Made by a program: the position numbers and the translations under genes. Shown in pieces: positions 31,112-61,420 of a stretch of DNA of 64,000 nucleotides. This DNA comes from Vicinamibacterales bacterium (GTDB lineage: Bacteria > Acidobacteriota > Vicinamibacteria > Vicinamibacterales > UBA8438). The notes under the pieces are model-generated. The model did not search any database. It was not told the DNA's origin and was given only the letters and a program-made list of their open reading frames with translations. The stretch is from NCBI GenBank assembly GCA_965217045.1, contig CBDCHF010000007.1, positions 211,825-275,824 of the forward strand. The letters are read 5' to 3'. How positions within the stretch are numbered: position 1 is the stretch's first letter; every line of letters begins with the position of its first letter.

Positions 31112-31163
31112 GACGATTGCTGACAATTCACCCGTTGCACCCGGCCTGGAGAGTTTCTAGGAT
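31112..31163 (+). promoter_or_regulatory. Direct-repeat operator + sigma70 promoter (probably leaderless mRNA)
   Basis: GACGAT-N4-GACAAT, 7 bp, TTGCAC, 17 bp, TAGGAT, 6 nt, ATG at 31170. Confidence 0.65.
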
Positions 31164-31169
31164 TGCAGC

Positions 31170-32129
31170 ATGCTGACCAGACGACAGGCCCTGCTCAACA
31201 TGGCGGCCGCCGCAACGGCAGCAGCGTTGCCGCATGACGGTGAAGCCGCTACCGCCGTTCCTCAGCCCGCCACGCCGGTAACATTCCGTGTGCCCGCGGG
31301 GGCATGCGACACCCACACGCACGTATTCTGCGATCCTGAGCAATTTCCGTATGCGTCGACGAGCAGGTACAGACACATGCCGGCAACACCCGGCGACCTG
31401 TGCATGCTGCATCGCGCGCTCCACGTCGATCGAGTCGTCATTATTCAACCGAGTGCGTACGGCACCGACAATCGGTGCACGATCGACGGGGTGACGCAGC
31501 TCGGCTCGCGGGCACGAGGGGTTGTCGCTATCGATGACAATACGCCCGACGCGGCCCTCGATGAAATGGCCGCCGCGGGTGTTCGCGGCATACGCGTCAA
31601 CCTCGGCCGGTCGCTTGCCGCGGCGCAGCCTCGCCTGGACGCGGCGGCGCGACGCGTGGCCGGCCGCGGCTGGCATGTCAATACCGCCGTGAGCTTGTCG
31701 CTGCTGGAAGGCTTGTCGGAGCAGCTCTCCGGCTCGCCGACACCCATCGTCATCGACCATTTCGCCGGAGCGGAAGCAGCACGCGGTACGCAACAACCGG
31801 GCTTCGATGTGCTGCTGGATCTTCTGCGAACGGGAGCGATCCACGTCAAGCTGTCGAGAATCCATAACGTGTCGAAGGAAGCGCCAGACTACGGGGACGT
31901 CGCGCCGCTCGCCCAGGCGCTCATTGCGGCAAACCCGGAGCGTATTCTGTGGGGTACGGACTGGCCGCATGCGGGGATTCGTCCGCCTGGATACTCGGCG
32001 ACCGACGTGTCGCCGTATCTTCCGATCGATGACGGACGCGTATTCAACCAGCTCGCAGTGTGGGCCCCCGATCCCGGATTGCGCCGGACGATTCTGGTTG
32101 ACAATCCGGCGCGGCTCTACGGTTTCTGA
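31170..32129 (+). CDS. Tat-exported amidohydrolase_2 (LigI/lactonase-like)
   Basis: TRRQAL twin-arginine leader; CDTHTHVF, QPSAYGTDN, IDHF, WGTDWPH, DNPARLYGF. Confidence 0.88.
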   Translation: MLTRRQALLNMAAAATAAALPHDGEAATAVPQPATPVTFRVPAGACDTHTHVFCDPEQFPYASTSRYRHMPATPGDLCMLHRALHVDRVVIIQPSAYGTDNRCTIDGVTQLGSRARGVVAIDDNTPDAALDEMAAAGVRGIRVNLGRSLAAAQPRLDAAARRVAGRGWHVNTAVSLSLLEGLSEQLSGSPTPIVIDHFAGAEAARGTQQPGFDVLLDLLRTGAIHVKLSRIHNVSKEAPDYGDVAPLAQALIAANPERILWGTDWPHAGIRPPGYSATDVSPYLPIDDGRVFNQLAVWAPDPGLRRTILVDNPARLYGF

Positions 32130-32379
32130 GAGGGATCGAGGGACAGATGGCAGTGAGACGATTGCCCGGCATCGCGGGAGTGGTCGCGCTTTCCGCCGCC
32201 GGCCTGCTCTTGGCCACGACCCCGGCCAAGGGGCAGCTGGGGGCGGCGAACGGCGAGTGGCGTTACTGGGGCGGTGACGGCGGCACGACGCATTATTCTG
32301 CCCTCGCCCAGATCGACCGTGACAACGTCAAGGATCTCGTCGTGGCCTGGCGCTGGAAGTCCGAGAACTTCGGCCCAAG

Positions 32380-33870
32380 CAGCCTGTGGCGAAAGTCGCG
32401 GATCCGGCCTGGCCCCGGCGCGATCGAGCCCGTACACTGAACGGCCATGGCGATGGGCAAGAAACCGGCGGCGCGCCAGGCGTCGCCGATGTGGGTGGAC
32501 ACGGCGGACCTTCCGACGAGCGACGGGCATCCTTACTTCGAGCGGCTGAACCGGGTCCTGGCGGATTCCGGATTCGATGCGTTCGTCGAGGAGTTGTGCG
32601 CGGCTTTCTACGCGGACAGGCTGGGCCGTCCGAGTCTGCGTCCGGGTCGGTATTTCCGGATGCTGTTCATCGGCTATTTCGAGGGGTTGTCGTCGGAGCG
32701 GGGGATTGCGTGGCGGGTGGCCGATTCGCTGAGTCTGCGGTCGTTCCTGGACCTGGAGTTGACCGCGGCGGCGCCGGATCACTCGACGCTGTCGCGCACG
32801 CGGCGGCGGATCGACGTAGAGACCCATGAGGCAGTGTTCACGTGGGTTCTGGAGCGGCTGTCCGCAGCGGGTCTGGTTCGGGGGAAGACGGTCGGCATTG
32901 ACGCGACGACGCTGGAAGCGAACGCGGCGATGCGGAGTATCGAGCGGCGGGACACGGGAGAATCCCACGAGGCGTTCATTCGGCGGTTGGCGGAGGCGTC
33001 GGGTGTTGAGACGCCGACGCGGGCGGAGCTGGCTCGGTTCGACCGTTCGCGGAAGAACAAGAAAACGTCGAACAAGGAGTGGAAATCGCCGCAGGACCCG
33101 GACGCGAAGATCGCGAAGATGAAGGACGGTCGGACGCACCTGGCCCACAACGCCGAGCACGGGGTCGACATGGACACGGGGGCCATCGTCGCGGTGACGG
33201 TGCAGGATGCATCGGATGGTGACACGGCGACGCTGCCGGAGACGCTGATCATGGCGGCCGAGCAGGTTGAAGCGGTGCAGCCGAACGGCGTGGGGGTCGA
33301 AGAGGTGGTGGCCGACAAGGGCTATCACAGCGACGCGACGCTGGTGGCGCTCGACACGATAGGGGTTCGGAGTCACGTATCGGAGCCGGAGCGCGGCCGG
33401 CGCTGCTGGCAGGACAAGAAGACGGGAGAGAAGCCGCCGGAGAAGGCTGCGGCACAGAAGGCTCTGTATGGGAACCGGCGGCGTGTGCGGGGGCGGCGGG
33501 GTCGTCGCCTGCAACGGTGCCGGGGCGAGGTGGTGGAGCGGACTTTCGCGCACCTGTATGAGACGGGCGGTATGCGTCGCGTGTGGGTGCGCGGTCACGA
33601 GAATGTCCGCAAGCGCGTGCTGATCCAGGCGGCCGCCTGCAACATCGGACTGCTCCTGCGCCGCCAGACCGGCGTCGGTACGCCCCGGAGCCTGCAGGGG
33701 CGGGCTGTTTCGGCGATTTGCCGCTTGATCGGGCGTCTGATCGACCGCTGGGGGCGTCTGAGGCGCGCTTGGGGGTTAAAATGGACCCCGACGGCGCTCG
33801 TCGGCTCAATCGCTCATCGCCAAGTTGCCTGAACAGCGGGGCTCAGCGAACAGACTTCTTCCACGGGCTG
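32380..33870 (+). mobile_element. IS1182-family element
   Basis: IRs CAGCCTGTGGCGAAAGTC / GACTTCTTCCACGGGCTG; CAAG duplication. Confidence 0.92.
32447..33832 (+). CDS. IS1182-family transposase
   Basis: GRPSLRP, PDHSTLSRTR, IDATTLEANA, ADKGY, VERTFAH. Confidence 0.92.
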   Translation: MAMGKKPAARQASPMWVDTADLPTSDGHPYFERLNRVLADSGFDAFVEELCAAFYADRLGRPSLRPGRYFRMLFIGYFEGLSSERGIAWRVADSLSLRSFLDLELTAAAPDHSTLSRTRRRIDVETHEAVFTWVLERLSAAGLVRGKTVGIDATTLEANAAMRSIERRDTGESHEAFIRRLAEASGVETPTRAELARFDRSRKNKKTSNKEWKSPQDPDAKIAKMKDGRTHLAHNAEHGVDMDTGAIVAVTVQDASDGDTATLPETLIMAAEQVEAVQPNGVGVEEVVADKGYHSDATLVALDTIGVRSHVSEPERGRRCWQDKKTGEKPPEKAAAQKALYGNRRRVRGRRGRRLQRCRGEVVERTFAHLYETGGMRRVWVRGHENVRKRVLIQAAACNIGLLLRRQTGVGTPRSLQGRAVSAICRLIGRLIDRWGRLRRAWGLKWTPTALVGSIAHRQVA

Positions 33871-35632
33871 CAAGGCCAAACTTCGACTGGAAGGCCACGC
33901 CGCTGATGATCGACGGCGTCCTCTACGTTACAGCGGGCTCGCGACGCGTGGCCGCCGCGATCGATGCCGCCACCGGTGAAACCTTATGGGTGTTTCGGTA
34001 CGATGAAGGGAGCCGGGGACAGCGGGCACCAAACCGCGGGGCATCCGGCCGCGGTTTGGCGTACTGGACCGACGGCCAGGGAGACGAGCGCCTCTTCTAC
34101 GTCTCGCTGGGCTATCGCCTCATTGCGCTCAATGCAAAGACCGGCCAACCGATCGATTCGTTTGGCAGGGACGGTGTCATCGATCTCTTCGAGGGCCTCG
34201 ATCAAGAGAAGCCGGTGCAGGAAGGCGACATGGCATTAACGTCGCCGCCGGCGGTCGTTGGGGATGTGGTCGTCGTTGGAGCCGCACTGCGTGCGCTGGC
34301 GCCCAGCGAGGAGTTCGTCGCGGGGTTCCCGCGCGGCTTCGACGCGCGCACCGGCGAGCGGATGTGGGTCTTCCGTACCCTTCCACGGCCGGGTGAGGTT
34401 GGCAACGACACCTGGGAGAACGACTCGTGGGCCTATACCGGCAACACCGGCGTGTGGGCGCCCGTCTCTGTCGATGAAGAATTAGGGTACGTCTACCTCG
34501 GCGTCGAAACGCCGACGAACGACTGGTACGGCGGGCACCGGCCTGGCGACAACTTGTTCGGCAACAGCCTTGTGTGCCTGGACGCGAGGACCGGGCAACG
34601 GATCTGGCACTTTCAATTGACGCATCATGACATCTGGGACTATGACATTCCGGCCGCGGCGAACCTGGTCGACATTACGGTCGGCGGCCGGCGGATCAAG
34701 GCCGTTGCGCAGGTAACCAAACAGGGCTTCACTTTTGTCTTCGACCGTGTGACGGGTGAGCCGGTTTGGCCCATTTAAGGAGCGACCGGCCGTGCAGTCA
34801 GACGTGCCGGGCGAGAAAACGTCGCCGACGCAGCCGTTCCCGACCAGGCCTGCGCCGTTCGAGCGGCAAGGGGTGGCACTGGATGATCTCATCGACTTGA
34901 CGCCGGAGCTGAAAGCCGAGGCGCTGGAGATCGTGAAAGGCTATCGCCTGGGTCCCCTCTATACGCCGGCTTCCATCACCGGACCGACGTTGATGTTGCC
35001 GTCGCCCAACGGGGGCGCCAGTTGGCAGGGCGCCGCCGTCGACCCCGAAACGGGATACCTGTACATAGGATCGGCGACGACCCCGCGCGTGCTCACGCTG
35101 AGGAACGATCCGGGCCGCAACGCGATGGACTACATCGGTTCGGCGCGCTGGAGGCCCGAGATCTTCCCCCAGGGCCTGTCGCTCGTGAAGCCGCCGTGGG
35201 GACGGATCACCGCGATCGATCTGAACACTGGCGACCATGTGTGGATGATTCCGAACGGGGATACGCCCGCAGCCGTCAAGAATCATCCGGGACTGGAGGG
35301 CGTGGACATCGAGAGAACCGGATCGGCTGACGCATCCGGGCTGCTGGTGACGGCGACGTTGCTCTTTTCCGGCAGTTCTGGATTACACGCCTCGCTGCCG
35401 CCTGGTCAAGGCTCCACGAGTCTTCTCGCGATCGACAAGGGGACGGGATCGGTCATCTTCGAGTACGAACTGCCGGATGGACTCCGGCCGACAGCAGTGC
35501 CGATGACGTATCTCGTTGACGACCGGCAGTTCATAGTGGTTGCAGCGGGAGCCTCACCGCCCGGGGCGAGGTTGAGCGTGCCGGCGGAGCTGCTGGCGCT
35601 CACCTTGCCCTGACGCCGATCGAGAGTGGCCG

Positions 35633-36634
35633 ATGAAGACCGGTGGTGCGTTGCGGCGCCCACGTCACGCGGGTGGCGGGTGCCGTCGATTCCGGTTTAG
35701 CACGGCACTGATAGGCATCGCCGCCGTGCTGGCGTCATGCCAGCGAGTGCAACCCGAGCAACCAGCGGAGCTCGAGCTCGTGCGCTTCCTGGAGCCGTCG
35801 CCGATTCCGAGCTCTTTCGCCGCTGACCTCGTCGCGCGCTTCGATGCGGCGCTTCCGGGCGCGCGAGTGTCGCTGAACGGGACATCTGGCTCGCTATCAC
35901 TGGTGTCGGCCTTGGAGCGCGGCCGTGGGGACATCGGCATCGCGCAATCCGACATCGTATACCTCGCGTACCGCCGGGGTCTGGAAAGCTACAAGGTTCC
36001 GCACACGAACCTGCGGGGCATCGCGGTTCTGTGGGTGAACGCCGTGCAGATCATGGTCCGTGGCGACAGCACGTTGCAATCCCTCAAGGATTTCCGCGGC
36101 CAACGCGTCGGTGTCGGTCCAGTCGGCAGCGCCGGCGAATTCTTTGCGCGTACCGTCCTGGAGGCGTACGGCCTAGGTTATTCCGATATAGAAGAACGCC
36201 ATCACCCGGTTTCCAGGATGCCGATGGCGCTCCTGCACGGAGCCCTCGACGGGGCAATAGCCGTGTCGCTCGTCGATCGATCGTCGCTGGCGACGTCGTC
36301 ACGATTGCGGCTGCTGTCGATTGACCCGAACGTGATCAGCCAACTGCGCTCCCGGTATCTGTTCGCCAAGCCGCTTTTCTTGCCGGCGCACATGTCCGAC
36401 GCCAATATCTCCGATGTTCATACCGTTGGCATCGATGCGCTGCTGGTATGCCACAGAAATTTGGAAGAGGATGTAGTTTATCGGCTGGTCAGAGAATTCT
36501 TCGCCATGCTGCCGGATCTCGCACTCAGCCACGCCGCCGCGTCCCTCGTGGACCCGGACCTGGGTCCTACGACACCCATTCCCCTGCATCCCGGCGCGGC
36601 CCGCTACTATCGCGAACGAGAAATTCTGGGGTAG
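35633..36634 (+). CDS. TAXI-family TRAP solute-binding protein
   Basis: TSGSL, DIGIAQSD, RVGVGPVGSA, PLHPGAARYYRE; possible lipobox LASC. Confidence 0.88.
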   Translation: MKTGGALRRPRHAGGGCRRFRFSTALIGIAAVLASCQRVQPEQPAELELVRFLEPSPIPSSFAADLVARFDAALPGARVSLNGTSGSLSLVSALERGRGDIGIAQSDIVYLAYRRGLESYKVPHTNLRGIAVLWVNAVQIMVRGDSTLQSLKDFRGQRVGVGPVGSAGEFFARTVLEAYGLGYSDIEERHHPVSRMPMALLHGALDGAIAVSLVDRSSLATSSRLRLLSIDPNVISQLRSRYLFAKPLFLPAHMSDANISDVHTVGIDALLVCHRNLEEDVVYRLVREFFAMLPDLALSHAAASLVDPDLGPTTPIPLHPGAARYYREREILG

Positions 36635-36654: not shown

Positions 36655-38370
36655 ATGTTTTCTGGTTGGTTTGCGCGCCGCCGCGATCTGGACCGAGAGT
36701 TGGTGCATTGGGGCGTCGTGTTCGCTGTGGCGACGGTGCTCTGCGGCGTGGTGGGTGCACTGGTGTGGTTCGGATACGTCGCACTTCGGGAGTGGGAGCG
36801 CGGCGCCGACCTGCTACTCGATCGACGCCAGGCCGAGGCCGTCGCCCTCACCACAACGGCGTTGAACCGTGACATGGAAGGCGCCTGGTCAAGAGTGCTT
36901 GTGCCCATCAACCGAGTCGCGGTCGAGGAGGATCCCCCGTACGACCTCATTCAGCGTACGGCGCAGGCTTTCGCCAGGTTCCCGTATCCGGAGTCGTTTT
37001 TCATTTGGCGCCACACCGAGTCCGAACCGCGCGGGGAAGTGACGTACGTATTCAACCGGGCTGAGCGGCGACCGCATTGGGACCATGCGACCGAATCGGA
37101 CGACCCGTTTCCCGTGGTCGTGCTCCGCGACCCGCCTGCGATGCGGGCGGTCGTCACCGCCGTCAGTCGCCGCGCCGAACCTACCAATCCGTTCATCGTC
37201 ATCGAGGTGGATATCGGAGGCGTTCCCTACCAAGTGGTTGCGCATCTGCTGTTTTCGCCAACCGAGTCGCGCCTGTCGAGCGTGGCTGGGTTCACCGTGA
37301 ACTTGGGTTGGATACGGCGAGAGTACTTTGGACCCTTGCTGCAGGAAGTCGCCAGAATTGGCGGTCATCAGGACGTATTGTCGTTTTCGGTCACCGACGA
37401 CTACGGGACGCTCGTGACGATCACTCAACCTCCGCAACAGGGCGCACCCGGTGTCCAGCGGCTGTTTCCACTGCTCTTCCTCGGCTCGGCGCTGGTTTCT
37501 TCCTCTTCCACACCGAAGCCAGCAATTCGCGAATGGACGGTTCACGTCACGCTCGGTGACGATCAGGCGCTGCCGGGGACGCAGCAAGGCATGCGGGAAA
37601 CATTCGCGGCTCTGGTAATCGCCAGCGCGGTCAGCGCGGTTGCGCTGCTGCTGGCGGTCAGGTTCGCCCGCGCAAGTGCCAGGCTCGCGTCCGTGAAATC
37701 CGACTTCGTGTCGGCGGTGACGCACGAACTCAAGACGCCTGTCGCACTGATTCGCCTTGTCGGCGACACTTTGGGCGCCGGTCATCCCGTTGCTCCGGGG
37801 ACCGTCAAGGAGTACTCCCGCCTCCTGTCTCGCGAGGCTTCTCGGCTGAGTCGGGCAATCGAGAACCTGTTGACGTATGCTCGCTATGAGGGCTCGCGCA
37901 GGCATCAGCCAATCGAGCTTGTGCCGGCCGACGTATGGGATCTGGTGGAACAGGCCCTCAAGGCGTTTCGGCCGACACTCGAACAGCTGGAATTCGAAGT
38001 CGTGGTCGACGTTCCGCACGATCTGCCACCGGTGCTAGCCGACCGTGCAGCGATGATTCAAGTCCTGGAAAACGTGGTCGCGAACGCGATCAAGTACTCG
38101 GAACAAGTACGCGCGCTCAGCATCGTCGGTCGTGTCCGGGCACGCCACGTACATCTGAAGATTTCCGATCAAGGGACAGGCATCGTCAACGACGATATCG
38201 CGCGCGTGTTCGATCGCTTCTATCGTGGTCGAAATGCGAAGCAGGGCGGCAGCGGCCTGGGGTTGACGATTGCGCGGCGGATCATTCGTCATCATGGAGG
38301 CGACATCACCCTCCGCAGCACTCTCGGCAGGGGGACCGACGTCGAACTCCTGCTGGCCGTCGCGGCCTAA
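36655..38370 (+). CDS. Sensor histidine kinase (2 TM, large periplasmic domain)
   Basis: FVSAVTHELKTP H-box, NAIKYS, DQGTGI, FDRFYR, GSGLGL. Confidence 0.93.
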   Translation: MFSGWFARRRDLDRELVHWGVVFAVATVLCGVVGALVWFGYVALREWERGADLLLDRRQAEAVALTTTALNRDMEGAWSRVLVPINRVAVEEDPPYDLIQRTAQAFARFPYPESFFIWRHTESEPRGEVTYVFNRAERRPHWDHATESDDPFPVVVLRDPPAMRAVVTAVSRRAEPTNPFIVIEVDIGGVPYQVVAHLLFSPTESRLSSVAGFTVNLGWIRREYFGPLLQEVARIGGHQDVLSFSVTDDYGTLVTITQPPQQGAPGVQRLFPLLFLGSALVSSSSTPKPAIREWTVHVTLGDDQALPGTQQGMRETFAALVIASAVSAVALLLAVRFARASARLASVKSDFVSAVTHELKTPVALIRLVGDTLGAGHPVAPGTVKEYSRLLSREASRLSRAIENLLTYARYEGSRRHQPIELVPADVWDLVEQALKAFRPTLEQLEFEVVVDVPHDLPPVLADRAAMIQVLENVVANAIKYSEQVRALSIVGRVRARHVHLKISDQGTGIVNDDIARVFDRFYRGRNAKQGGSGLGLTIARRIIRHHGGDITLRSTLGRGTDVELLLAVAA

Positions 38371-38371
38371 T

Positions 38372-39082
38372 CAGCCTGTGGTAAAACCGCCGGATAGGGA
38401 TCGACAGGACGGATCGTGCCCTCTACACTGGTGCCGATGTCGATGGGTAAACGCTAGGTGGACGGCAACGGCTGATGTGGGTGGCCAGCGCGGCGACGGA
38501 TCGACATCGAGACGCACCAGGCGGTTTTCACGTGGGTTCTGCGGTGGTCGAGACGTTGATCACGGCGGCCGAGCTGGTCGAAGTGGTGCTGCCGACCGGC
38601 GGTGGGCTCGCCGAGGTGGTTGGCGACAAGGTATCACTGGTGCTCCCGGCGGCCTGCCCGACTCCACGAGATTACCCGCGTGAAGTCGTTGGGAAGGTAC
38701 AGGGGTATCACAGCAATGCCCGTGGATTGCGCCTGCTCCGGCAACGCGGCGAACGCCTCGAACGCCCTACCGCTCGTCTCTACGAGACCGGCCGACTGAG
38801 TCGCGTGCATCTGCGGGGCCATGCCAACATCCTCAAGCGCCTGCACGTACACGTCTGCGGTTTGAATCTGGGCCTGCTCATGCGCCGACTGACGGGCGTT
38901 GGGACCCCTCGAGGCCTCCAGGGCCGCGCCTGGACGCTCATCGACGCCGTCAGCTGCTTCTGGAGCTCTGTGCCCCGTTACTGGACCGCCGGTTCGTCCG
39001 ATCCAGCGTGGATCGACCGCTCGGCACGGGGCTACCAACCCGCATTCCTCACGCCACAAACAGGTGGTTCTGCCACGGGCTG
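38372..39082 (+). mobile_element. Internally deleted IS1182 derivative between kinase and regulator
   Basis: IRs CAGCCTGTGGTAAAACC / GGTTCTGCCACGGGCTG; patches homologous to 32447-33832 (LYETG, VGTPRGLQGR). Confidence 0.85.
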
Positions 39083-39090
39083 CTAGCGAC

Positions 39091-39798
39091 ATGGCCAAGC
39101 GCATCCTTCTCATCGAGGACGACGACGCAATCGGCCGCCTGCTGGGCGACAACCTGCGGCGCGAGCGATTCGACGTCGAGTGGTCCCGCACCGGACCCGA
39201 AGGCCTGGAAAAACTCAAGGTATTCATACCGGACCTAATCATCCTCGATTTGATGCTGCCGGGCGGCATGGATGGATTCGAACTCTGTCAGCTCCTGAGC
39301 CGTCAGTCGCCGGGTCCGGCGCGCGAGCAGGTGCCCATCATCATCTTGAGCGCACGCGGTCAGCAGGCGGATCGGGTGCGGGGATTGAACGTCGGTGCTG
39401 ACGACTATGTCGTCAAACCGTTCGATCTGGAGGAGTTGTTGGCCCGCATCAGAGCCGTCTTGAGGCGGACGAAACGTACCGAGCCGCCGATCAGCAGGCT
39501 GCAGCTGGGCAAGACGTTCATCGATTTCCGGAAGCTGCGTGCATCGAGAGGCCGGGAGGAGTTGGTGCTCACCGATCGGCAGTTTGAAGTCCTGCGCTAT
39601 CTGGCGGAGCGGGCCGGCAGCATCGTCACACGTGAAGAACTGCTTTGTCTGGTCTGGGGATACTCGCAAGTGCCGCAGACCCGGACGGTCGACAATTTCA
39701 TCTTCAGGCTTCGACAAAAGATCGAGCAGGATCCGCACGATCCCACGTATATCCGAACTGTCTATGGTGACGGCTATCGATTGATCGTCCACGGTTGA
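39091..39798 (+). CDS. OmpR-family response regulator
   Basis: IEDD, LDLMLP, GADDYVVKPF, RTVDNFIFRLRQKIE, TVYGDGY. Confidence 0.95.
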   Translation: MAKRILLIEDDDAIGRLLGDNLRRERFDVEWSRTGPEGLEKLKVFIPDLIILDLMLPGGMDGFELCQLLSRQSPGPAREQVPIIILSARGQQADRVRGLNVGADDYVVKPFDLEELLARIRAVLRRTKRTEPPISRLQLGKTFIDFRKLRASRGREELVLTDRQFEVLRYLAERAGSIVTREELLCLVWGYSQVPQTRTVDNFIFRLRQKIEQDPHDPTYIRTVYGDGYRLIVHG

Positions 39799-39899
39799 CG
39801 CAGCGACGGATGGACGCGCCACGGGTCACCACGCTGGTGATTGTGCTCGTGCATCTGACGCTGGTAGACTCTGGAAACGGCCGGACGCACATCTTGTTC

Positions 39900-50718: not shown

Positions 50719-50796
50719 CGCTGCGACCTCATGATTAAAGGTCGTGAACGGCCCCGGGGCTCCCTTCCGGAAAACACCGGGGCGGTTCTGGTACTC

Positions 50797-53706: not shown

Positions 53707-53765
53707 AGCTAGAACTCCTATCGATTCAACGGGCAGTACGCACGATAAGACCGACGCCGGCTGTT

Positions 53766-55688
53766 TCAGCGCGTCCTCCCGCTGGCGAGAAGACAGCGTG
53801 TTTCTTCCATCTTGACCACTTCTCCGGGCTTGAGGACGACCGTTTCCCGAGCACCGCACGGCCAGCGAACCTCCGCATCGACGGCGCCAACCACGCCCGG
53901 CAGCCCGATCAGTATCCGTCGGTCGTGCTCGGACAGATAGCTGCCTCCCGACGTCACATGGCGGGTCTGGGTGATATCACCGGTCACAACTTGCACGCGG
54001 GCGCCGATCGCATCGCGGTTACACCCCTTGCCCTGGAGCTCCAGCCGCGCCCACCTGTTCCGATGAGCGGTATCATTTCGAAGCAGCACCGCCGGCTCAT
54101 CGTTGTTCAGGACGACGACATCCCAATCGCCGTCGTTGTCGTAATCGCCAAACGCCGCCCCCCGTCCCACGTGCTCTTCCAGGAAGTACGAGCCCACCGG
54201 CGGCCCCAACGTGACATCGGTAAAGTGTCCCCGCCGGCCATCGTTGCGGTAGACCTGCGCGCGCTGCGCATACCCTTTCCGCAAACGGGACCGCGGATGC
54301 TTCTCCAGGTTGTCGTTGACGTGGCCGTTCGCGACGAACAGATCCAGATGGCCGTCGAGGTCGAGATCGACGAAGCGGGCGCCCCACTTGAGAAACGCGA
54401 GGCTGTAGCTCCAGATACCCGACGGCACGCTTTCATCGGTAAATGTCAGACCTTCACGATTCCTGTAGAGCGAACTGGGTTCCCCTTCGTAGTTCGTGAC
54501 GAAGAGATCGATCCATCCGTCGTTGTCGTAATCGGCCGCGTCGACACCCATGCCCGCATAGGCCTTCCCGTGCGACCCCACCGCCACACCCGCCTGCAGG
54601 GCCCGCTCGTGGAAAGTTCCGTCGCGGCGGTTCATGAACAGCAGATCCGGCAGCATGTCCGATGCGACGAAGATGTCCGGATACCGGTCGTTATCGAAAT
54701 CGGCGACGGCGACACCTAGACCGTGGCCGGTGCTGCCGGCGATGCCGGAAGATTCCGTCACGTCCGTGAACGTGCCGTCGCGCGCATTCCGATAGAGGCG
54801 ATTCACCGCGCCGCCGTATGCCGGCGGTCCGCAATACGCCAACCGGAGATTGTCGTCCGCTGGAAGCGGAGCAGTCCGGGGCTGGGCAACCAGGACTGGC
54901 TCGCGGACGCTCGTCGGGTCGATGCACCGCACGTCGTCTTCCAACGAATAGTCCGTGTAACGAGCGACGAACAGATCCAGCCATCCGTCATTGTCGTAGT
55001 CGAGAAACGCGGCGCCCGCAGACATTGGCGGCGCCCCGACACCAGCTTCCAGTGTGGCATCGGTGTAGCGCCCCTGGCCGTCGTTGCTGAAAAGAGCGTT
55101 CCCCTGCAGGTTCGTGACGAACAGATCGGTGTCTCCGTCGTTGTCGTAGTCGGCGGCCGCCACACCCAACCCGTAACGCTGGTCAGTCAGTCCTGCCTCA
55201 ACGGTGACATCGGTGAACGTGCCATCCCCGTTGTTTCCATAAAGGACGTTCCCCGACAGCGGCGGACCCTGGTATCCGGGCAGTGCTGCGCCCTGAACGA
55301 AGAAGAGGTCGAGAAACCCGTCCCGATTGTAGTCGAGAAAGGCCGCCGTTCCGCCAAACTGCTCGGGATAGTAATGCCGCCCGCTCGCGCCCCGGGCATG
55401 CCGGAACTTCAACCCGGATGCTTCGGTGACGTTGCGCAGCCGTATCGCCGGCGGGCGCCCGGCAGCTGACGACCGGGTCTGGGTATTTCCCGAAGGCTGC
55501 CAGTAGCCGAGCAGCGATACAATGCAGCCGAGAGTCGTGAGAGTGGCGAGGTAACGCGTCCGGCGGGATCGACCGTGTTTCATGACAGCACGCAGCCCGG
55601 GTCCGGCGCCGACCTTCGCCGAGCCCCCGGACGACCCGGGAGACGATTCACAACTGACAATTGCGGGGCGCCGGCGTCCATGATTCAT
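53766..55688 (-). CDS. CRTAC1-family FG-GAP/VCBS repeat protein with ASPIC/UnbV domain (start may be 55583)
   Basis: Repeated DYDNDG.DLF motifs; NRDAIGARV, GGSYLS, VRWP. Confidence 0.88.
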   Translation of the reverse strand: MNHGRRRPAIVSCESSPGSSGGSAKVGAGPGLRAVMKHGRSRRTRYLATLTTLGCIVSLLGYWQPSGNTQTRSSAAGRPPAIRLRNVTEASGLKFRHARGASGRHYYPEQFGGTAAFLDYNRDGFLDLFFVQGAALPGYQGPPLSGNVLYGNNGDGTFTDVTVEAGLTDQRYGLGVAAADYDNDGDTDLFVTNLQGNALFSNDGQGRYTDATLEAGVGAPPMSAGAAFLDYDNDGWLDLFVARYTDYSLEDDVRCIDPTSVREPVLVAQPRTAPLPADDNLRLAYCGPPAYGGAVNRLYRNARDGTFTDVTESSGIAGSTGHGLGVAVADFDNDRYPDIFVASDMLPDLLFMNRRDGTFHERALQAGVAVGSHGKAYAGMGVDAADYDNDGWIDLFVTNYEGEPSSLYRNREGLTFTDESVPSGIWSYSLAFLKWGARFVDLDLDGHLDLFVANGHVNDNLEKHPRSRLRKGYAQRAQVYRNDGRRGHFTDVTLGPPVGSYFLEEHVGRGAAFGDYDNDGDWDVVVLNNDEPAVLLRNDTAHRNRWARLELQGKGCNRDAIGARVQVVTGDITQTRHVTSGGSYLSEHDRRILIGLPGVVGAVDAEVRWPCGARETVVLKPGEVVKMEETRCLLASGRTR

Positions 55689-55714
55689 TCGTTCGATTCC
55701 GTTGCCTACCCGTC

Positions 55715-57067
55715 CTACACTTCGGAGAGGCCCCGCAGCTTGCCGGTGCTGTCGGCGAACCGTTCCAGGGGAAGACCGAGCTTGTCCAGCAGTGTCACGT
55801 GCAGATTGGCAATGGGCACGCCGGGATACCGAACGTGGCGGCCACCCTGCAACCGCCCGGCCCCGCCACCGAGCAGCGCGACAGGCAGATCCTCATGCGA
55901 GTGCACGTTGGCATTGCTGAGGCCTGAACCATAGAGGATGATTGAATGGTCCAGCAACGAGCCGTCCCCGTCCGGCGTTGCCCTCAATTTCTCCACGAAC
56001 TCGGCAAACAGCGTCGTCATGAAGATGTTGATCTTTGTCACCTTGTTGACAGGCTCGGGATCAGTATTGTGAGTCAACGGGTGATGCGCGTCGGAGACGC
56101 CAATTTCAGGGTACGGACGGTCGCTGCCTTCGTGATTGAGCATGAAGGTGAAGACGCGCGTGAGATCGCTCTGAAGCGCCAGCGCCTGCAGGTCGAACAG
56201 CAGCCGGGCATGATCGTCATACCGCTCCGGAATGCCACCACTGGGACGCTCGACAAGAGGGAACTCGCGGTCGCTTTGCTCTTCCGCCTTTTGAATCCGC
56301 CACTCGATGTCGCGAACCGACGTGAGATACTCGTGAAGCTTGGCCCGATCGCCGGAGCCGAGCTCCCTTTGGAATCGAGCCACCTCCTCGGCCACCGAGT
56401 CGAGGACGCTGCGCTGCTTTTCGATTCGGGCCAGCCTGACCGCCGGGTCCGTACTCGTGACGTCGCCGAAAAGACGCTCGAAAACGACGCGCGGGTCGGT
56501 CTCCATTTGCAGCGGTGTCGTGGGAGTGCGCCACGAGATCGTGCGACTGTACGGGCACGCGTAACCGGGGTCGCAACCGCCCACCTGAACGTTCGAGCCC
56601 AACGTCAGCTCGAGCGAGCGCAACTGAGTGTGTTTGCCAAAATCATCCGCCACGATCTGATCGATCGACGTCCCCAATTGCATGTCGGCGCCGTCTGTCT
56701 TCCTGGCATGTGCCGACGTCAGGAACGCGGCAGCAGCGCGGGAATGGTCTCCGGTGCCCTCGCCCGGGCGCGGGTCCGCAATCGGGTTGCAGAGGCCGCC
56801 CAACACGAGCATGCGATCCTTGAACGGTTGGAGTGGTTCCAGAATCCGAGGGAACTCGAAGTCGGCGCCGACCGAGGTCGGCCGCCAGTTCGCCATGATC
56901 ATCCCGGTCGGAGCGTAGACCGTGCCGAAACGGACGAGCGGCCTGGCCGCCGTGTTGCGCAGCGCAGCGAACGCCGGCACCATGCCGTCCAGCAGTGGCA
57001 GAGCCAACGATGCGCCCAAGCCACGCAGGATCGTTCGGCGCGGGATGGCCTTCTTGAAGGCAATCAT
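55715..57067 (-). CDS. DUF1552 (HXXSHH) protein
   Basis: RRTILRG Tat-like leader, LPLLDGM, SIDQ, PRVVFERLFG, HHPLTH, YGSGL..H; ATGA-coupled to the upstream gene. Confidence 0.88.
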   Translation of the reverse strand: MIAFKKAIPRRTILRGLGASLALPLLDGMVPAFAALRNTAARPLVRFGTVYAPTGMIMANWRPTSVGADFEFPRILEPLQPFKDRMLVLGGLCNPIADPRPGEGTGDHSRAAAAFLTSAHARKTDGADMQLGTSIDQIVADDFGKHTQLRSLELTLGSNVQVGGCDPGYACPYSRTISWRTPTTPLQMETDPRVVFERLFGDVTSTDPAVRLARIEKQRSVLDSVAEEVARFQRELGSGDRAKLHEYLTSVRDIEWRIQKAEEQSDREFPLVERPSGGIPERYDDHARLLFDLQALALQSDLTRVFTFMLNHEGSDRPYPEIGVSDAHHPLTHNTDPEPVNKVTKINIFMTTLFAEFVEKLRATPDGDGSLLDHSIILYGSGLSNANVHSHEDLPVALLGGGAGRLQGGRHVRYPGVPIANLHVTLLDKLGLPLERFADSTGKLRGLSEV

Positions 57068-59490
57068 GATTCCGACCTCCTCATCTGAAACGGAACGCTC
57101 TTGACTACCTCCAGGATGATCGAAGACCACCGGTAGTCGTTTCGGGCGCTCTGCCGAATGATCCGCCGAATTGCCGGCATATCGTAATAGTCGATTCCGC
57201 GACCCAGCGCATACGTCAGAAGCTTTCCGGCAACCGCAGCGACAAATTCCTCGTCGCGATTCACCAACATCGCGCGCAGCTCGGACACGCCGTCGAACGT
57301 GGTTCCATCGAGCATGCCCGATGCGTCGATCGGCGCGCGGCCCTGGTGCGTACGCCACTGCCCGACCCCATCGAAGTTCTCCAGCGCGAAACCCAGCGGG
57401 TCGATCCGCGCATGACACGCCGCGCAGGCCGGATTCCGCCGGTGTTGCTCCAGTCTCTGCCGCATGGTGCGAAACTTGACGCCCGGCCGCTCCTCAAGCG
57501 CGGGCACGTCAGGAGGAGGAGCAGGCGGCGGCGCACCGAGAATATTCTCCAGCACCCATTTGCCCCGCAGGGTCGGGGACGTCCGATTGGCGTACGACGT
57601 CACCGTGAGAATGCTTGCCTGGCCAAGCAAGCCGCCCCGCGCCGCGTCCTCCAGTTCGACACGCCTGAAATGAGCACCGTACACCTTCGGAATGCCGTAG
57701 TGCCGAGCCAGTCGTTCGTTGAGGAACGTATAATCCGCCTGCAGCAGGTCAACCACGCTCCGGTCGTCGCGCAGCTGGCTTTCGAAGAACAGCTCGGTCT
57801 CCCGACGGAATGCTTCGCGCAGTTCGTCGTCGAAGTCCGGAAATGTTTTCGGATCCGGCCGCACGACCTGCAGATCGCGCAGCCGCAGCCACTGCCCCAC
57901 GAAATTGCTGGCGAGCGCTCTGGACTTGAGATCGCTGATCATGCGGCGAACCTGCTGCTCCAGAATCACCGAGTCCTTGAGCCTGCCGGCCATCGCGAGG
58001 TCAAGCAATTCCCGATCCGGGATGCTGCTCCAGAGAAAAAACGACAGCCGGGACGCCAATTCCACGTCGTCAACGCGATAGGCGATCCCCGGCTCGACAG
58101 CGGGCGGATCACGTTCGGCGCGGAACAGGAACCGAGGACTCACCAGGATTCGCTCGAGCGCCAGTTGGATGCCCCCTTCGAAGCTGCGCTCCCGCCGGCC
58201 CTTTTCGTAGAAGGCGAGCAATGTCTCGACATCTGCATCCGTCACAGGCCGGCGATAGGCGCGCGCAGCCAAGCCGGACAGTATCTCTCTGGCACATGCA
58301 CCCGCGTGCAGGTCGCTGGTCGGATAACAGACGAAAATGTTCCGCCGACTGGGGCTCTCCCGAGGCGTCGTGGCGTTGTAGGGACCACCGAGCTCCACAC
58401 GATCGATGCGCGGTGGTGCGTCCCTATCGTTTTGAAACGAGTAGTTCGACGTCGGAAAACGCGGCGCCAGGTCTTCCCGCTCCAACGTTGCATCGTGAAA
58501 AGCCACACCGACGACATGGGTGCCCGCCGCAATCGGAAATCTGACCTCGTACGTATCGGGAAACTCGAATTGCCTGGTATAGATGTCGTTGGCTTGGCGC
58601 CGAGTCGGAAGGTCGGCCTCCAGACCATCGGCACGCGGGTCGAAACCGAATGGGATCTTCTCGACCGGAACACCGTCCACCCGCACATCGATGACGCTTC
58701 GATGCGTGACACCCATCAGGGAATCCTGACCGACCGCGTACTTCATGTGGATCTTCAGGATGTACTCGCCGTCCACCGGAAAATAGCGGCGAAACGAGAT
58801 CCCGCCGCGGGTGCCCCAGGGCAAATCGTCACTCGCCCGAGCTTCCTGCCTCACGTTATGGGGCACCCGGTAGACATCAACGATCGGACGAATAGCCACC
58901 GCATCGCCAACGGCGAGACGGCTGATCTTTTCCGCCGCTGCCAGGTAGCGTTCCAGCAGCGCCGGCGAAACCGTAAGAATATCGGCGATATTGTCGAAAC
59001 CGAACGCCGAATCGTCGGGTGGCAGCAGTGACGTGCCATCGATCGCGAGCGACAGCAGGTCGCGAACCGCGTTCACATATTCGGCACGGTTGAGGCGATG
59101 CAGAACCGCCCGCCCGGGATTGGGTCTGGCGGCGGCCGCCTGATCGATTTCCGTTTCCAACCAGGCGACGAGGTTGTGCACCGCCGCGCCGTCCGGGCGC
59201 GGCCGGCCGACCGGGGGCATCGCGCCGGTCCGCAGCTTGGCCACCACCTTCTCCCATACTGCGGCGTCGCCCGGAACATGTTCGACGTCCAGCCTGTCGA
59301 GCATCAGTCCGGCTGTCTCGAGCTGCTCGTTATGACATGTTATGCAGTAGCGATCGAGCAGCGCCTGATAGGTTGCCACCGGGGATCGCTCCCGGCTCCG
59401 GGTGCTCGACGCGCCCAGATCGGCGGCACTCGCCGCGACCAGCACGGTCAAGACGCAACCCAAGGCGAATCGGCGCGGGTTCCTGGTCAT
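57064..59490 (-). CDS. DUF1587/1595/1592/1588/1585 protein with c-type haem motifs
   Basis: CITCH, RLNRAEY, GFDN, ASRLSFFLWSS, TSPTLRGKW, CAACH, DPLGFALENFD. Confidence 0.9.
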   Translation of the reverse strand: MTRNPRRFALGCVLTVLVAASAADLGASSTRSRERSPVATYQALLDRYCITCHNEQLETAGLMLDRLDVEHVPGDAAVWEKVVAKLRTGAMPPVGRPRPDGAAVHNLVAWLETEIDQAAAARPNPGRAVLHRLNRAEYVNAVRDLLSLAIDGTSLLPPDDSAFGFDNIADILTVSPALLERYLAAAEKISRLAVGDAVAIRPIVDVYRVPHNVRQEARASDDLPWGTRGGISFRRYFPVDGEYILKIHMKYAVGQDSLMGVTHRSVIDVRVDGVPVEKIPFGFDPRADGLEADLPTRRQANDIYTRQFEFPDTYEVRFPIAAGTHVVGVAFHDATLEREDLAPRFPTSNYSFQNDRDAPPRIDRVELGGPYNATTPRESPSRRNIFVCYPTSDLHAGACAREILSGLAARAYRRPVTDADVETLLAFYEKGRRERSFEGGIQLALERILVSPRFLFRAERDPPAVEPGIAYRVDDVELASRLSFFLWSSIPDRELLDLAMAGRLKDSVILEQQVRRMISDLKSRALASNFVGQWLRLRDLQVVRPDPKTFPDFDDELREAFRRETELFFESQLRDDRSVVDLLQADYTFLNERLARHYGIPKVYGAHFRRVELEDAARGGLLGQASILTVTSYANRTSPTLRGKWVLENILGAPPPAPPPDVPALEERPGVKFRTMRQRLEQHRRNPACAACHARIDPLGFALENFDGVGQWRTHQGRAPIDASGMLDGTTFDGVSELRAMLVNRDEEFVAAVAGKLLTYALGRGIDYYDMPAIRRIIRQSARNDYRWSSIILEVVKSVPFQMRRSES

Positions 59491-59564
59491 GTCGAATATC
59501 ACCTTGATCCGCTCGACCAGAATCGTGGCGGCGCGGCGAAATAATCTGCCAGCAAAGGACCAGT

Positions 59565-61283
59565 CTATCTGGAGACCTCCACCCTGGACGCATCCACCGA
59601 GCCGTCCCACGGTTGGCCGTTCTCATCGAGAAGGTGGCCAAGACGCGTGGCTGTCACGTGGACCGTGGCTCCGACTGCGAGCTCCGCGCAGCTTCCGGCG
59701 CCGTATTCTGTCTCTGCGGTCGTGTTGAGTCGAATGCCGGCGCCGTAACCCCTGAATTCCACCGTGCCGGCGACGATAATCGCAGGCGTGGGGCAGGATG
59801 CCTCAAGCGACCTGATCGTGCCCGAGAATCTCATGACATTACTGCCGCCGGCCGCTCGCAACAGCTCCGCCGTGCTTTCCGAATAGAAGGTGTTGCCGCC
59901 AGTGTCGGGACCGGTGAAGCCTTCCGCGATAACCAGGGGCGTTTCACCGGCCTTGTTCCTCGCGTTCACCGCGGCGCCGCTGTCGAGCAGGAACCGCACC
60001 ACGGGGTCCGACTGAAAGTAGGCGGCACCATGGAGGGCGGTGTCACCGACCGCGTTGGCATCATTGATGTCGATGCCGGCGTCTAGCGCCACCTGGACGG
60101 CCTCCAGTGCTTCCCTGTTCTGAACGCGGCTCTCCCCGTGGATTCGACCGTATCCCGCCGCGGCCATAAGGGCAGTGGACCCGTTTGTCGTGGTCAACGA
60201 CGGGTCGGCGCCGGCGGCCAGCAGCTCGCGCATGATGTCCGGAAGCCCTCCCAGCGCCGCCAGCACGAACGGTGTCGCGCCGGAGAAATTTCCCAACCGG
60301 GATCCGCTTCCATAGCCGAAGCGAGGCGGCCGCCGCTCAATCGTTGCATTGGGGTCCGCACCGTGATCGAGGAGAGCCTTCGCGAGCGCCAGTTTTCCCG
60401 GACCTCTGGCCCCGATCCATTCGTACCCGTCCGGGCCCAGGGCGCCACTGATGTCGTTTTCCCACGATCCGGCGGCCCAGTGCAGAGCGGTGAAACCGGT
60501 GGCGTTCTCGTTCGGGTTCGCGCCTTGCTCGAGCAGAAATCCGGCGAGATCCCAGTGACCAGTGTAGGTTGCCGCCACGAGCGCCCCGGTACCGTCCGAT
60601 GCAAGCCCGTTGACGTCGGCTCCGTCGGCAAGCAGGACCCGCACCGCATCGGCGGCGCCTGCGCGGGCCGCGAACAAGAGCGGCGTGAATTTCGCGTTCG
60701 CCGTCGCGGTCTGGACATCGGCGCCTTGCTCGATGAGCAGGCGGGCAACGTCCGCGTGATTCTGCGCGGCGGCCCACATCAGCGCAGTCTGCCCTTGCAC
60801 GCCTTCTTTGGCGTTCACGTCCGCGTCACGCGACAGGAAGGCCTTCACGGCGTCGATATTCCCCGTTCGCGCGCAGGTCATCAGAGCGGTTTCGCCGGTA
60901 GAACGCGTCACGTTCACATCGGCGCCAGCGTTCAACAGCTTCCCGACCAGCGTGGCGTTCCCGTTGGTACAGGCCAGCGACAGAGGCGTCACACCGAGAT
61001 CGGTCGCGACGTTCACGGCCGCTCCCGCATCGAGCAGCATTCCCACCGCTTCCAAGTCGCTCCACTGGACCGCCCAATGCAGGGCGCTCGTACCGTCGGC
61101 CCACTGCGCGTTTACGTCGATGTTCCGACTCAGCAGCGCACGAAACGTCTCGCGATCCCGCTCCTTCACCGCTTTCAGCAGCGCAGGCTCGCCGGGGCCG
61201 GCGGCCAAGCTCGTCGTCAGAGCCAGCAGGGCGATGAGCGCATACGCAAGAACCGCAACTTCAACCCTGGATCCGTTCGACAT
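59565..61283 (-). CDS. Exported ankyrin-repeat protein
   Basis: Signal peptide; repeated G.TALHWA / TPL..A motifs; C-terminal small beta domain with Cys pair. Confidence 0.9.
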   Translation of the reverse strand: MSNGSRVEVAVLAYALIALLALTTSLAAGPGEPALLKAVKERDRETFRALLSRNIDVNAQWADGTSALHWAVQWSDLEAVGMLLDAGAAVNVATDLGVTPLSLACTNGNATLVGKLLNAGADVNVTRSTGETALMTCARTGNIDAVKAFLSRDADVNAKEGVQGQTALMWAAAQNHADVARLLIEQGADVQTATANAKFTPLLFAARAGAADAVRVLLADGADVNGLASDGTGALVAATYTGHWDLAGFLLEQGANPNENATGFTALHWAAGSWENDISGALGPDGYEWIGARGPGKLALAKALLDHGADPNATIERRPPRFGYGSGSRLGNFSGATPFVLAALGGLPDIMRELLAAGADPSLTTTNGSTALMAAAGYGRIHGESRVQNREALEAVQVALDAGIDINDANAVGDTALHGAAYFQSDPVVRFLLDSGAAVNARNKAGETPLVIAEGFTGPDTGGNTFYSESTAELLRAAGGSNVMRFSGTIRSLEASCPTPAIIVAGTVEFRGYGAGIRLNTTAETEYGAGSCAELAVGATVHVTATRLGHLLDENGQPWDGSVDASRVEVSR

Positions 61284-61368
61284 CCGGCAACTCCCGACAG
61301 CAGCCCACCCGCAACGGGTTGGCACGCCAGCACCCGCCACGGACTCATCATTTCACCACCAAGACCCC

Positions 61369-61420
61369 ATGCTAAGGCGTCCGAGAGCCCTTCTCAACAG
61401 GTGAATTGTTATAGATTGTC
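61369..61420 (-). promoter_or_regulatory. Direct-repeat operator + sigma70 promoter
   Basis: Minus strand GACAAT-CTAT-AACAAT, 7 bp, TTGAGA, 17 bp, TAGCAT. Confidence 0.65.

Follow-up and report, generated by a model that had tools for sequence, protein, structure and literature searches.

A conserved GACAAT direct repeat as candidate operator of an OmpR/PhoB-family regulator at three promoters of a periplasmic redox island in a Vicinamibacterales bacterium

What controls the 30-kb periplasmic redox island that lies in a stretch of 64,000 nucleotides from a Vicinamibacterales bacterium, and does one regulator act on several of its transcription units? The stretch, hereafter the window, covers positions 211825 to 275824 of contig CBDCHF010000007.1 (C9) of assembly GCA_965217045.1, a genome of 6.45 Mb in 12 contigs which we label G000. 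Three of the units are preceded by the same direct repeat, GACRAT-N4-RACAAT, at 31112 (+), 45506 (+) and 61420 (-); these sites are called S1, S2 and S3, and homologous loci fetched from other genomes carry L numbers. From the comparison of DNA sequences, S1 to S3 are probably operators of the OmpR/PhoB-family response regulator encoded within the island. This regulator would be the output of a cassette that also specifies a TAXI-family binding protein and a sensor histidine kinase.

The three promoter sites claimed in the preliminary description of this DNA, together with their spacings from repeat to -35 and from -35 to -10, are all found in the window (Table 1). S2 is the sole perfect copy of the repeat in G000. 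At S1 the hexamer TAGGAT begins 30 nt past the repeat, as in related promoters, and the promoter of S3 was accepted by a sigma-70 promoter scan with 9 of 12 matches. Besides the -10 hexamer assigned to it, S2 offers two alternative candidates, TAGGTA at 18 nt and TAGTGT at 22 nt past the repeat. Gaps of 2 to 7 nt between the two hexamers were tried in the window. A gap of 4 returned S1 to S3 only, and a gap of 7 gave a single hit with one mismatch, at 32087 within the amidohydrolase open reading frame (ORF) that follows S1; all other hits had two mismatches. A CusR/CopR-type palindrome was excluded as the identity of the sites, the repeats being direct and not inverted.

On both strands of the genome GACRAT-N4-RACAAT occurs four times; three of these occurrences are S1 to S3 and the fourth, at C2:14191, lies in GC-rich, coding-like sequence. 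With at most one mismatch GACAAT-N4-GACAAT is found nine times genome-wide, as against none for the same pattern read backwards. When a TTG at +7 is added, ten hits with up to three mismatches are obtained (1, 2, 0 and 7 at zero, one, two and three mismatches, respectively), and in keeping with the earlier claim of an operator shared by these promoters, S1 to S3 are all that G000 holds at one mismatch or fewer. Shuffling of the window led to an expectation of 0.43 sites with one mismatch, compared with the three observed, a number reached in one of 100 shuffles. The pattern was, however, defined post hoc, so these in-genome figures overstate its significance, and the independent test is conservation in other genomes. 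The weight of the case falls on the fixed offset of the TTG, on the T that follows both hexamers and, most of all, on the comparison across genomes. Two further groups of hits were noted along the way. About 30 places in G000 (e.g., C1:4189, C2:253244 and C9:119030) have two-mismatch hits that share CGTCCGACAGTGCGCGACGATATCATCCGC, and this repeated element is probably the end of another abundant insertion sequence (IS). Three pattern hits clustered in genome G015 were rejected, since they are located in repeated coding sequence of paralogous genes and not in promoters.

Within the genus of the window, 12 of 13 genomes had no match to the regulator at E<=1e-55, and in its own family one of 49 sampled genomes matched at E<=1e-66. 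In an order-wide sample of 400 genomes the best homologues, with 59-67% identity, were from other families; the best homologue was 55% identical among 400 genomes of the phylum and 46% identical in a collection of genome contigs. Eight loci with distant regulator homologues (±1.5 kb) gave motif hits with three mismatches only. No repeat was found in the intergenic DNA beside the 46-48% homologues of two genomes (G030 and G013), that of G030 carrying a near-palindrome, or upstream of amidohydrolase homologues from metagenomes (50-62% identity), where the best match had three mismatches.

Twenty homologue loci of 13-20 kb each (374 kb in total) were fetched and annotated by tblastn with the proteins of the window. 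They comprise 18 of the best 19 and two lower-ranked loci, the latter chosen since the repeat had already been seen there. With at most one mismatch the 20 loci contain 18 sites distributed over 11 loci or, with the two pre-selected loci removed, 16 sites in 9 of 18, and each of five composition-matched control hexamers has none. The preliminary description had proposed a scan of orthologous upstream regions. For 13 of the 14 closest homologues the locus was fetched, and nine of these loci have the repeat with at most one mismatch and two more with two mismatches. Whole-genome counts at the same stringency were 10, 18, 11, 4 and 27 in five genomes with close homologues, versus 1, 0, 2, 1 and 0 for the backwards control. 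Five genomes of the window's genus without a regulator match (E<=1e-55) gave 0, 3, 0, 2 and 2 sites versus 2, 0, 0, 0 and 1 for the controls.

The sites of the related genomes lie mostly in gaps before the same kinds of gene as in the window. The repeat stands upstream of genes for proteins that combine haem with a fold like that of peptidylglycine alpha-hydroxylating monooxygenase (PHM) at L304:6209 and L323:7506, of a DUF1592-DUF1552-ankyrin group at L304:19993, of an ankyrin gene at L323:632, and of genes resembling TonB receptors at L307:15235 and in L316 and L273. At L310:9780 it precedes genes for an NHL propeller, a TonB-receptor-like protein, a pyrroloquinoline quinone (PQQ) protein and a DUF1592 protein; homologues of the window's barrel gene (50797) are found downstream of the repeat in L307, L316, L273 and L310. 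In four loci (L305, L306, L307 and L309) the repeat faces cupin and NHL genes that are divergent from the TAXI gene. Locus L323, from genome G716, is nearly syntenic with the island, its PQQ dehydrogenase, ASPIC and PHM-like proteins being 74%, 62% and 60% identical to those of the window. It also has, between its PQQ and TAXI genes, a perfect repeat that faces an 82-codon ORF (10164-10412, -) with two CxxC pairs; by eye its product reads as an FmdB-like zinc ribbon, and the ORF may belong to the regulon as a small member that the window lacks. The assignment of the repeat to the regulator rests on this co-conservation, since the repeats adjoin homologous cassettes in other families of the order.

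Could the similarity of the three sites have arisen by chance, or as a by-product of mobile DNA? Apart from the post hoc choice of pattern, and from the clustering of three of nine one-mismatch hits within 30 kb, which taken singly is just moderately unlikely (an estimate of about 0.006, before correction for hexamer choice) and would not withstand that correction, it is the neighbourhood of two sites that would speak for this: S2 lies 12 bp from the end of an IS, and S3 lies 19 bp from a duplicated segment of 241 bp. S2 was nevertheless rejected as an IS end, because the other copies of that element stop at 45493 and do not include the repeat. The flanks of S1, S2 and S3 have nothing in common outside the motif, and the motif is found at the same kinds of promoter wherever the regulator is 60-67% identical, the control hexamers giving 0. 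Chance or mobile DNA is therefore a very improbable source of the pattern. The duplicated segment itself (61439-61679) has its second copy 7.4 kb away, at C9:280707-280947, with 98.3% identity. It covers the upstream region and first codons of a DUF6788 gene, its left edge is the one adjoining S3, and the DNA that separates the two copies contains FG-GAP/ASPIC genes.

Alignment of 16 sites from nine genomes revealed that positions A2, C3, T6, A12, C13, A14 and A15 are the same in all 16, A4 and A5 in 15, and G1 and G11 in 14. Outside the search pattern, T10 and T17 occur in 14 sites each, and T24 and T25 in 11 each. A -10-like hexamer is located 29-31 nt past the repeat in 10 of the 15 close-homologue sites that were scored; the sixteenth, at the end of its locus, reads TTGCGA-N18-GAGAAT and agrees by eye. 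A second architecture, with GACAAnTTGCGACAAn-type repeats 18-20 nt before a TATAnT in seven of seven cases, accompanies regulators of 46-57% identity and one more site, L304:9852, of a closer genome; besides L304:9852 it is seen in L316, L317, L318, L271, L273 and L270, and genome G764 has both architectures. This spacing brings the repeat one helical turn nearer to the -10, in place of the -35. The recognition helix of the window's regulator is TRTVDNFIFRLR. Seven of the eight aligned homologues of 60-67% identity have TRTVDNF[IV]FRLR and the eighth has one change, so that none departs from the window by more than one residue, while the more distant group has TR[SA][VT]D[HNQ][AT]x[AGN]R[LI]R. 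As helix and spacing both differ in that group, motif, geometry and recognition helix change together.

A real and conserved cis-element could still be bound by a different protein, either one of the other five OmpR-type regulators of the genome or a BldC-like relative of MerR, the regulator being a co-inherited passenger. BldC is described as binding head to tail to 9-bp direct repeats that contain GGACAATTC (PMC5859096), a sequence which resembles GACAATTC at S1 and S3. Moreover, genome G673 has its 27 sites spread over many contigs, so the gene for the binder need not adjoin each of them. A BldC-like protein was rejected all the same: for all the resemblance of the motif, none of the ten HTH_17 matches in G000 is on contig C9, and the period of the BldC repeat is 9 bp rather than the 10 bp found here. 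Nor does the distribution of the repeat fit another binder, since it tracks the cassette (9 of the 13 closest loci, background counts in the five genomes without the regulator) and the recognition helix of the regulator is conserved exactly where the motif is conserved. The regulator gene is the only one of six Trans_reg_C genes of G000 that lies on C9, and Pfam searches of the ORFs between 31 and 62 kb revealed no further transcription-factor family. We consider a different binder unlikely.

With the regulator as the binder, the system might work as follows. The TAXI protein, bound to its ligand, would dock on the periplasmic domain of the kinase, and the kinase would phosphorylate the regulator. 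A head-to-tail dimer of the regulator would then occupy GACAAT-N4-GACAAT at about -58 to -43, one turn upstream of a weak TTGnnn -35, and would help RNA polymerase to start at three weak promoters. The units co-induced in this way would be an operon for an amidohydrolase, a PQQ dehydrogenase and the sensor (now damaged), a haem-PHM-like gene pair, and a 13-kb cluster for ankyrin, DUF1592, DUF1552, ASPIC, barrel, cytochrome c and PQQ alcohol dehydrogenase proteins. That the effect would be activation and not repression we infer from the position of the sites upstream of poor -35 and -10 hexamers.

Bound to the repeat, the regulator might instead repress, or have a dual effect, and not simply activate all three units. 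A divergent repeat beside the TAXI gene would fit repression of the cassette's own operon, and in L304-L307, L309, L313 and L323 the repeat is indeed ~25-290 bp upstream of the TAXI start (as estimated by tblastn) or of its expected place, always facing away. The two spacings of 18-20 and 29-31 nt before the -10 also lend themselves to two modes of action; PMC7755780 records an OmpR-family regulator whose sites either cover the -35 or lie 50 bp upstream, and the two positions are read there as different mechanisms. S1 to S3 themselves, however, are placed upstream of weak -35 and -10 hexamers and face their genes, which is the usual layout of activator-dependent promoters, and none of them overlaps a -10 or a start site. 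Repression or dual control thus seems quite unlikely to us, and activation is preferred.

A number of observations weigh against the regulator as activator of all three units. At the promoters themselves, the sigma-70 scan returned no hit at S1 or at S2, and the -10 hexamer of S2, CAAGCT, is poor, fitting TATAAT at two of six positions. TAGGAT of S1 aligns with the AGGAGGA ribosome-binding site of homologous amidohydrolase genes and could act as a Shine-Dalgarno element instead of a -10. The shared geometry favours the -10, without amounting to proof, and only if that geometry holds would the amidohydrolase mRNA be leaderless. In the comparison of genomes, the sites elsewhere come from a scan that used the motif of the window itself, and related genomes are not independent samples. 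At two mismatches the 20 loci yield 30 motif sites versus up to 15 for a control hexamer, and two of the 13 closest loci (L311 and L315) have no repeat up to two mismatches within the fetched stretch. Not every site fits one architecture, and at the seven loci with a repeat beside the TAXI gene it points away from the cassette. The S1 operon, finally, is damaged: its PQQ dehydrogenase gene is cut by an IS of the DUF772/DDE_Tnp_1 type (transposase 32447-33832; repeat ~32369-33884) and by a frameshift, and the start codon of the regulator lies 4 nt past IS-derived sequence. With the IS and the frameshift in the S1 operon, and a transposase fragment just before the regulator start, self-activation of the regulator operon through S1 is doubtful in the present genome, and normal expression of the regulator is uncertain. 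The earlier proposal that the regulator activates its own operon as well as the two others has therefore to be divided. Action on the three units is supported by the co-conservation of the repeat with the cassette, and activation of the regulator's own operon is in doubt here.

Table 1. Candidate operators, genes and mobile elements of the island (positions of the window)
Feature	Position	Strand	Description
Operator S1 (candidate)	31112-31127	+	GACGAT-tgct-GACAAT = GACGATtgctGACAAT; spacer 7 bp; TTGCAC 31135-31140
S1, downstream part		+	17 bp after TTGCAC, TAGGAT 31158-31163; 6 bp; ATG 31170
Exported Amidohydro_2 protein, first after S1	31170-32129	+	PF04909 3.5e-37; Tat-type MLTRRQ N-terminus (read from sequence)
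PQQ dehydrogenase pseudogene	32147-35613	+	Pieces 32147-32440, 33825-34778 and 34756-35613; WDYD motif
TAXI-family periplasmic binding protein	35633-36634	+	Lipobox LASC; TIGR02122 175.6 bits (cut-off 84.35)
Sensor histidine kinase	36655-38370	+	Two transmembrane segments, ~283-aa periplasmic domain, HisKA, HATPase_c (Pfam, translation)
Transposase fragment between kinase and regulator	38475-39087	+	From ~475-aa transposase gene
OmpR/PhoB-family response regulator	39091-39798	+	Response_reg 3.3e-26; Trans_reg_C PF00486 8.7e-25
Exported CxxCH haem / PHM-like / C-terminal TPR protein	39795-42065	+	TPR families; ORF overlaps regulator end by 4 bases
Insertion sequence	42111-45493	+	NCBIfam IS3 label, 64 bits (cut-off 160); divides regulator operon from S2
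Operator S2 (candidate)	45506-45521	+	GACAAT-gtat-GACAAT = GACAATgtatGACAAT; 7 bp; TTGTTG 45529-45534; 17 bp; CAAGCT 45552-45557
Exported haem c (CQNCH) + PHM/DBH-like two-domain protein	45655-47139	+	Foldseek fold match
Conserved partner of PHM-like gene	47055-48115	+	Frames 47055-47864 and 47831-48115 in assembly
PQQ-dependent alcohol dehydrogenase, last gene of S3 cluster	48200-49840	-	TIGR03075 538.6 bits (cut-off 480.05); 74% homologue in L323
c-type cytochrome	49906-50718	-	Pfam Cytochrom_C 5.1e-20
Outer-membrane beta-barrel, TonB-dependent-receptor-like, CarboxypepD_reg domain	50797-53859	-	Pfam
FG-GAP/ASPIC-UnbV protein	53766-55688	-	Pfam
DUF1552 (HXXSHH) protein	55715-57418	-	Pfam 2e-93
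DUF1592/DUF1588/DUF1585/DUF1587/DUF1595 protein with cytochrome c motif	57064-59610	-	Pfam; likely start near 59490
Exported ankyrin-repeat protein, first after S3	59565-61283	-	Pfam; likely start ATG 61283 and signal peptide
Operator S3 (candidate)	61420-61405	-	GACAAT-ctat-AACAAT = GACAATctatAACAAT; 7 bp; TTGAGA 61397-61392; 17 bp; TAGCAT 61374-61369

The regulator gives full-length matches to the structures of RpaA, MtrA, RegX3 and KdpE, the first three being its best solved relatives. Residues D10, D11, D53 and K109, which correspond to the acidic pocket, the phospho-acceptor aspartate and the lysine, are invariant across 17 aligned homologues. It fits no named equivalog: with none of the 25 NCBIfam models listed does it attain the cut-off, MtrA being the best with 201.3 bits (cut-off 300), followed, among those given here, by PhoB with 189.3 (296.2) and OmpR with 155.6 (331). 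In 18 of the 20 related loci a kinase homologue of 35-53% identity immediately precedes the regulator gene on the same strand, so that kinase and regulator of the window are a cognate pair divided by the transposase fragment; in L323 the two matches are separated by 11 bp. The 203-codon ORF of that fragment has 67 matches in G000, mostly within frames of 475 aa.

As in the window, a TAXI homologue adjoins the kinase gene in 13 of the 20 related loci (tblastn), and no membrane-subunit family of the TRAP (tripartite ATP-independent periplasmic) transporters was detected by Pfam among the ORFs between 31 and 62 kb. The TAXI protein is predicted to be a co-sensor that docks on the periplasmic domain of the kinase. 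Structure prediction of the complex scored 0.80 (runs of 0.80, 0.84 and 0.79), compared with 0.00 for the best control; of 80 solved complexes 58 attained the score mark used, as did 2 of 110 mismatched pairs, a calibration that is rough only, as own alignments were used. At least 95% of the contacts agree between runs, the predicted local distance difference test (pLDDT) value of the partner is at least 85, and the predicted interface takes in invariant columns of both alignments, with an invariant PIPLHP loop among them.

In the operon that follows S1, the amidohydrolase scores 199 bits with the NCBIfam model for 4-sulfomuconolactone hydrolase, under its cut-off of 500 bits. Positions 1-42, 43-338 and 337-595 of the Pfam PQQ profile map onto the three pieces of the dehydrogenase pseudogene, and other copies of the interrupting IS in the genome are 94-99.8% identical to it. 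The TPR protein encoded next to the regulator is related to the haem-PHM-like protein of the S2 operon (28% identity over 428 aa of the N-terminal part, E 4e-27) and has a 53% homologue in L323. The IS that lies beyond it is present in 16 paired copies in the genome and generates target duplications of 14 bp, which is unusually long for its IS3 label. A second IS is nested within it at 42142-44109, 31 bp inside the left end, and is 99% identical to C12:801486-803453. In the window the target duplication of the outer element ends within the first 2 nt of S2. Since an IS with a 14-bp duplication was inserted later between them, S2 once lay ~45 bp past the stop codon of the TPR gene.

Mobile DNA is also abundant in the part of the window that precedes the island. 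Transposase genes and fragments thereof number at least nine in positions 1-30700 (DDE_Tnp_1, IS66, DDE_Tnp_1_4, ISAZ013, ISL3 and rve), where a phage-type integrase (19714-20724) and split fragments of molybdopterin-enzyme and PQQ genes are also located. The G+C content of the window is 65.8%, compared with 67.6-70.8% for the contigs.

The first product of the S2 operon had been labelled a Cu-monooxygenase, and at the level of fold this label holds. No Pfam or NCBIfam family was hit, the Pfam Cu-monooxygenase families included, and a sequence comparison with solved structures gave nothing under E 0.13. A predicted model of the protein (mean pLDDT 62) has as its top Foldseek match dopamine beta-hydroxylase (DBH; 4zel, E 4.4e-8), followed by PHM (1phm). 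The best hits, which comprise DBH and about 20 PHM entries, have E values of 4.4e-8 to 1e-4, a probability of 1.00, and TM-scores to the target of 0.43-0.50. The copper ligands of PHM are HH...H and HxH...M. The window's family has an invariant haem c motif (C61, C64 and H65) and five invariant histidines (H228, H229, H277, H347 and H349), and M355 is almost invariant.

This family is rich in paralogues: each genome of the genus has about 40 six-frame matches (40 in G000, with a range of 37-44 over 13 genomes), most of them at 53-61% identity to the query. Target families of this kind gave no orthologous promoters. Presumed orthologues of 66-70% identity in eight genomes of the genus were tried and set aside; they have no repeat, and a stretch resembling a promoter, CTTGTnTTCTC..CAGAATGG, is common to seven of them. 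They are other paralogues and thus uninformative with respect to the island. The partner gene is conserved, its homologues coming after the PHM-like gene in L323, L304 and L322. In the assembly it is split into two frames; an extra C after 47783, seen in the DNA run X10 and the RNA-library run X18, would merge these into one gene, so the frameshift may stem from an error in the assembly or reflect a difference between strains. The sequencing runs were available as contigs and were compared over 45450-61700; they carry no information on starts, strand or levels, and uncovered parts have no meaning. Contigs of RNA-library run X20 are identical to 45578-45728 and three more pieces of the S2 operon, and others match two pieces of the barrel gene with full identity. 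They are a weak hint of expression, as DNA may be present in RNA libraries.

S3 heads a tightly packed cluster of 13 kb on the minus strand. A short ORF in another frame (61351-61280, -) lies between its proposed -10 hexamer and the start of the ankyrin gene. It starts with ATGATG after a GGTGGTG stretch and resembles a lipoprotein signal (..GVAGC), and may represent a leader peptide or a remnant, or have arisen by chance. Of 40 related genomes searched, 22 (21 of 24 in the family of the window) contain 3-10 matches at E<=1e-80 to exported ankyrin proteins of the type encoded at 59565, the best being ~52% identical to the window's copy. The last enzyme of the cluster, the PQQ alcohol dehydrogenase, contains a YDYD motif at residues 299-302, and DYD is common to both PQQ enzymes of the window. 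An extra aspartate two residues past the catalytic one (DYD) is the mark of lanthanide-dependent PQQ dehydrogenases. By its family and this mark, the enzyme has the sequence attributes of a lanthanide-type PQQ alcohol dehydrogenase.

The layout of S1 to S3 is best compared with known members of the OmpR/PhoB family. At the ompF and ompC promoters of Escherichia coli, OmpR occupies promoter-proximal sites F3 and C3 at about -60 to -41, with a half-site of the GTTACA type. The arrangement proposed here is alike in that a regulator dimer would sit on tandem 10-bp units upstream of a weak -35 (~-58 to -43), as in class I activation; it is unlike in its half-site, GACAAT, and in having one dimer site per promoter instead of three. 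PhoB recognizes CTGTCAT half-sites, with a TGTCA core, at a period of 11 bp, and its targets serve phosphate acquisition. It is of the same family, the other strand of the present half-site, ATTGTCA, contains the TGTCA core, and the repeats of the 46-57% homologues and of L304:9852, 18-20 nt before TATAnT, are placed like a pho box that replaces the -35 (class II). In contrast, the window sites have a 10-bp period, GACAAT half-sites and redox or envelope targets, and lie one helical turn further upstream, so that neither by period, nor by half-site, nor by targets do they belong to a Pho regulon. What is found is a tandem repeat that keeps a fixed distance to the -35 and -10 and is conserved across species along with the regulator gene, as expected of an OmpR/PhoB-type operator.

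The closest documented parallel is the regulon of RR2 in Sulfurospirillum, an OmpR-family regulator that is encoded in an organohalide-respiration region and, according to the available part of the report, binds CTATW-N17-CTATW at several promoters (PMC7755780). In both systems the regulator gene lies inside a respiratory or redox island with a direct repeat at several of the island's promoters. The repeat, the organism and the targets are different, and binding was demonstrated there by electrophoretic mobility-shift assay and is predicted here. Sensor kinases that depend on a binding protein are also on record, namely LuxP-LuxQ, TorT-TorS, XylFII-LytS and HptA-HptS (PMC8050422). As in these, the gene of the binding protein lies beside that of the signalling protein and not beside a transporter, and prediction has the protein docked on the periplasmic domain of the kinase; unlike them, the binding protein of the window belongs to the TAXI/NMT1_3 family, and the contact is a predicted one. 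Neither NMT1 nor the TAXI family is mentioned in the available text of that review. A literature search on half-site, direct repeat and response regulator returned nothing on this system among titles and abstract openings.

Judged on conserved sequence, then, the island belongs to a familiar type of regulon, that of the OmpR/PhoB direct repeat, with a real conserved operator, and its prediction as a regulon is sound. A wider interpretation is tentative and somewhat doubtful: the cassette may represent a new type of sensor, in which a TAXI protein without a transporter is the partner of a kinase and one GACAAT-repeat code governs, throughout the order and in two architectures one turn apart, a system of periplasmic oxidation composed of lanthanide-type PQQ dehydrogenases, a TonB-receptor-like barrel, haem-fused PHM/DBH-like copper enzymes, and DUF1592, DUF1552, ASPIC and ankyrin proteins. 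With the predicted TAXI-kinase pair, the sensor kinases known to depend on a binding protein would gain a new binding-protein family, and the ligand of the TAXI protein would provide a handle on the inducing signal. For the reconstruction of this regulon in related genomes the motif GACAATtnaTGACAAtTg can be used, with 4-27 sites per genome compared with 0-2 for the control. DUF1592 and DUF1552 are seldom mentioned in the literature searched. The shared operator groups these and other families of unknown function with PQQ dehydrogenases, a c-type cytochrome and an outer-membrane receptor in a manner that can be tested, and if the prediction is true, it would be the first regulatory evidence that the DUF1592, DUF1552, ASPIC, ankyrin and haem-PHM-like families share one pathway.

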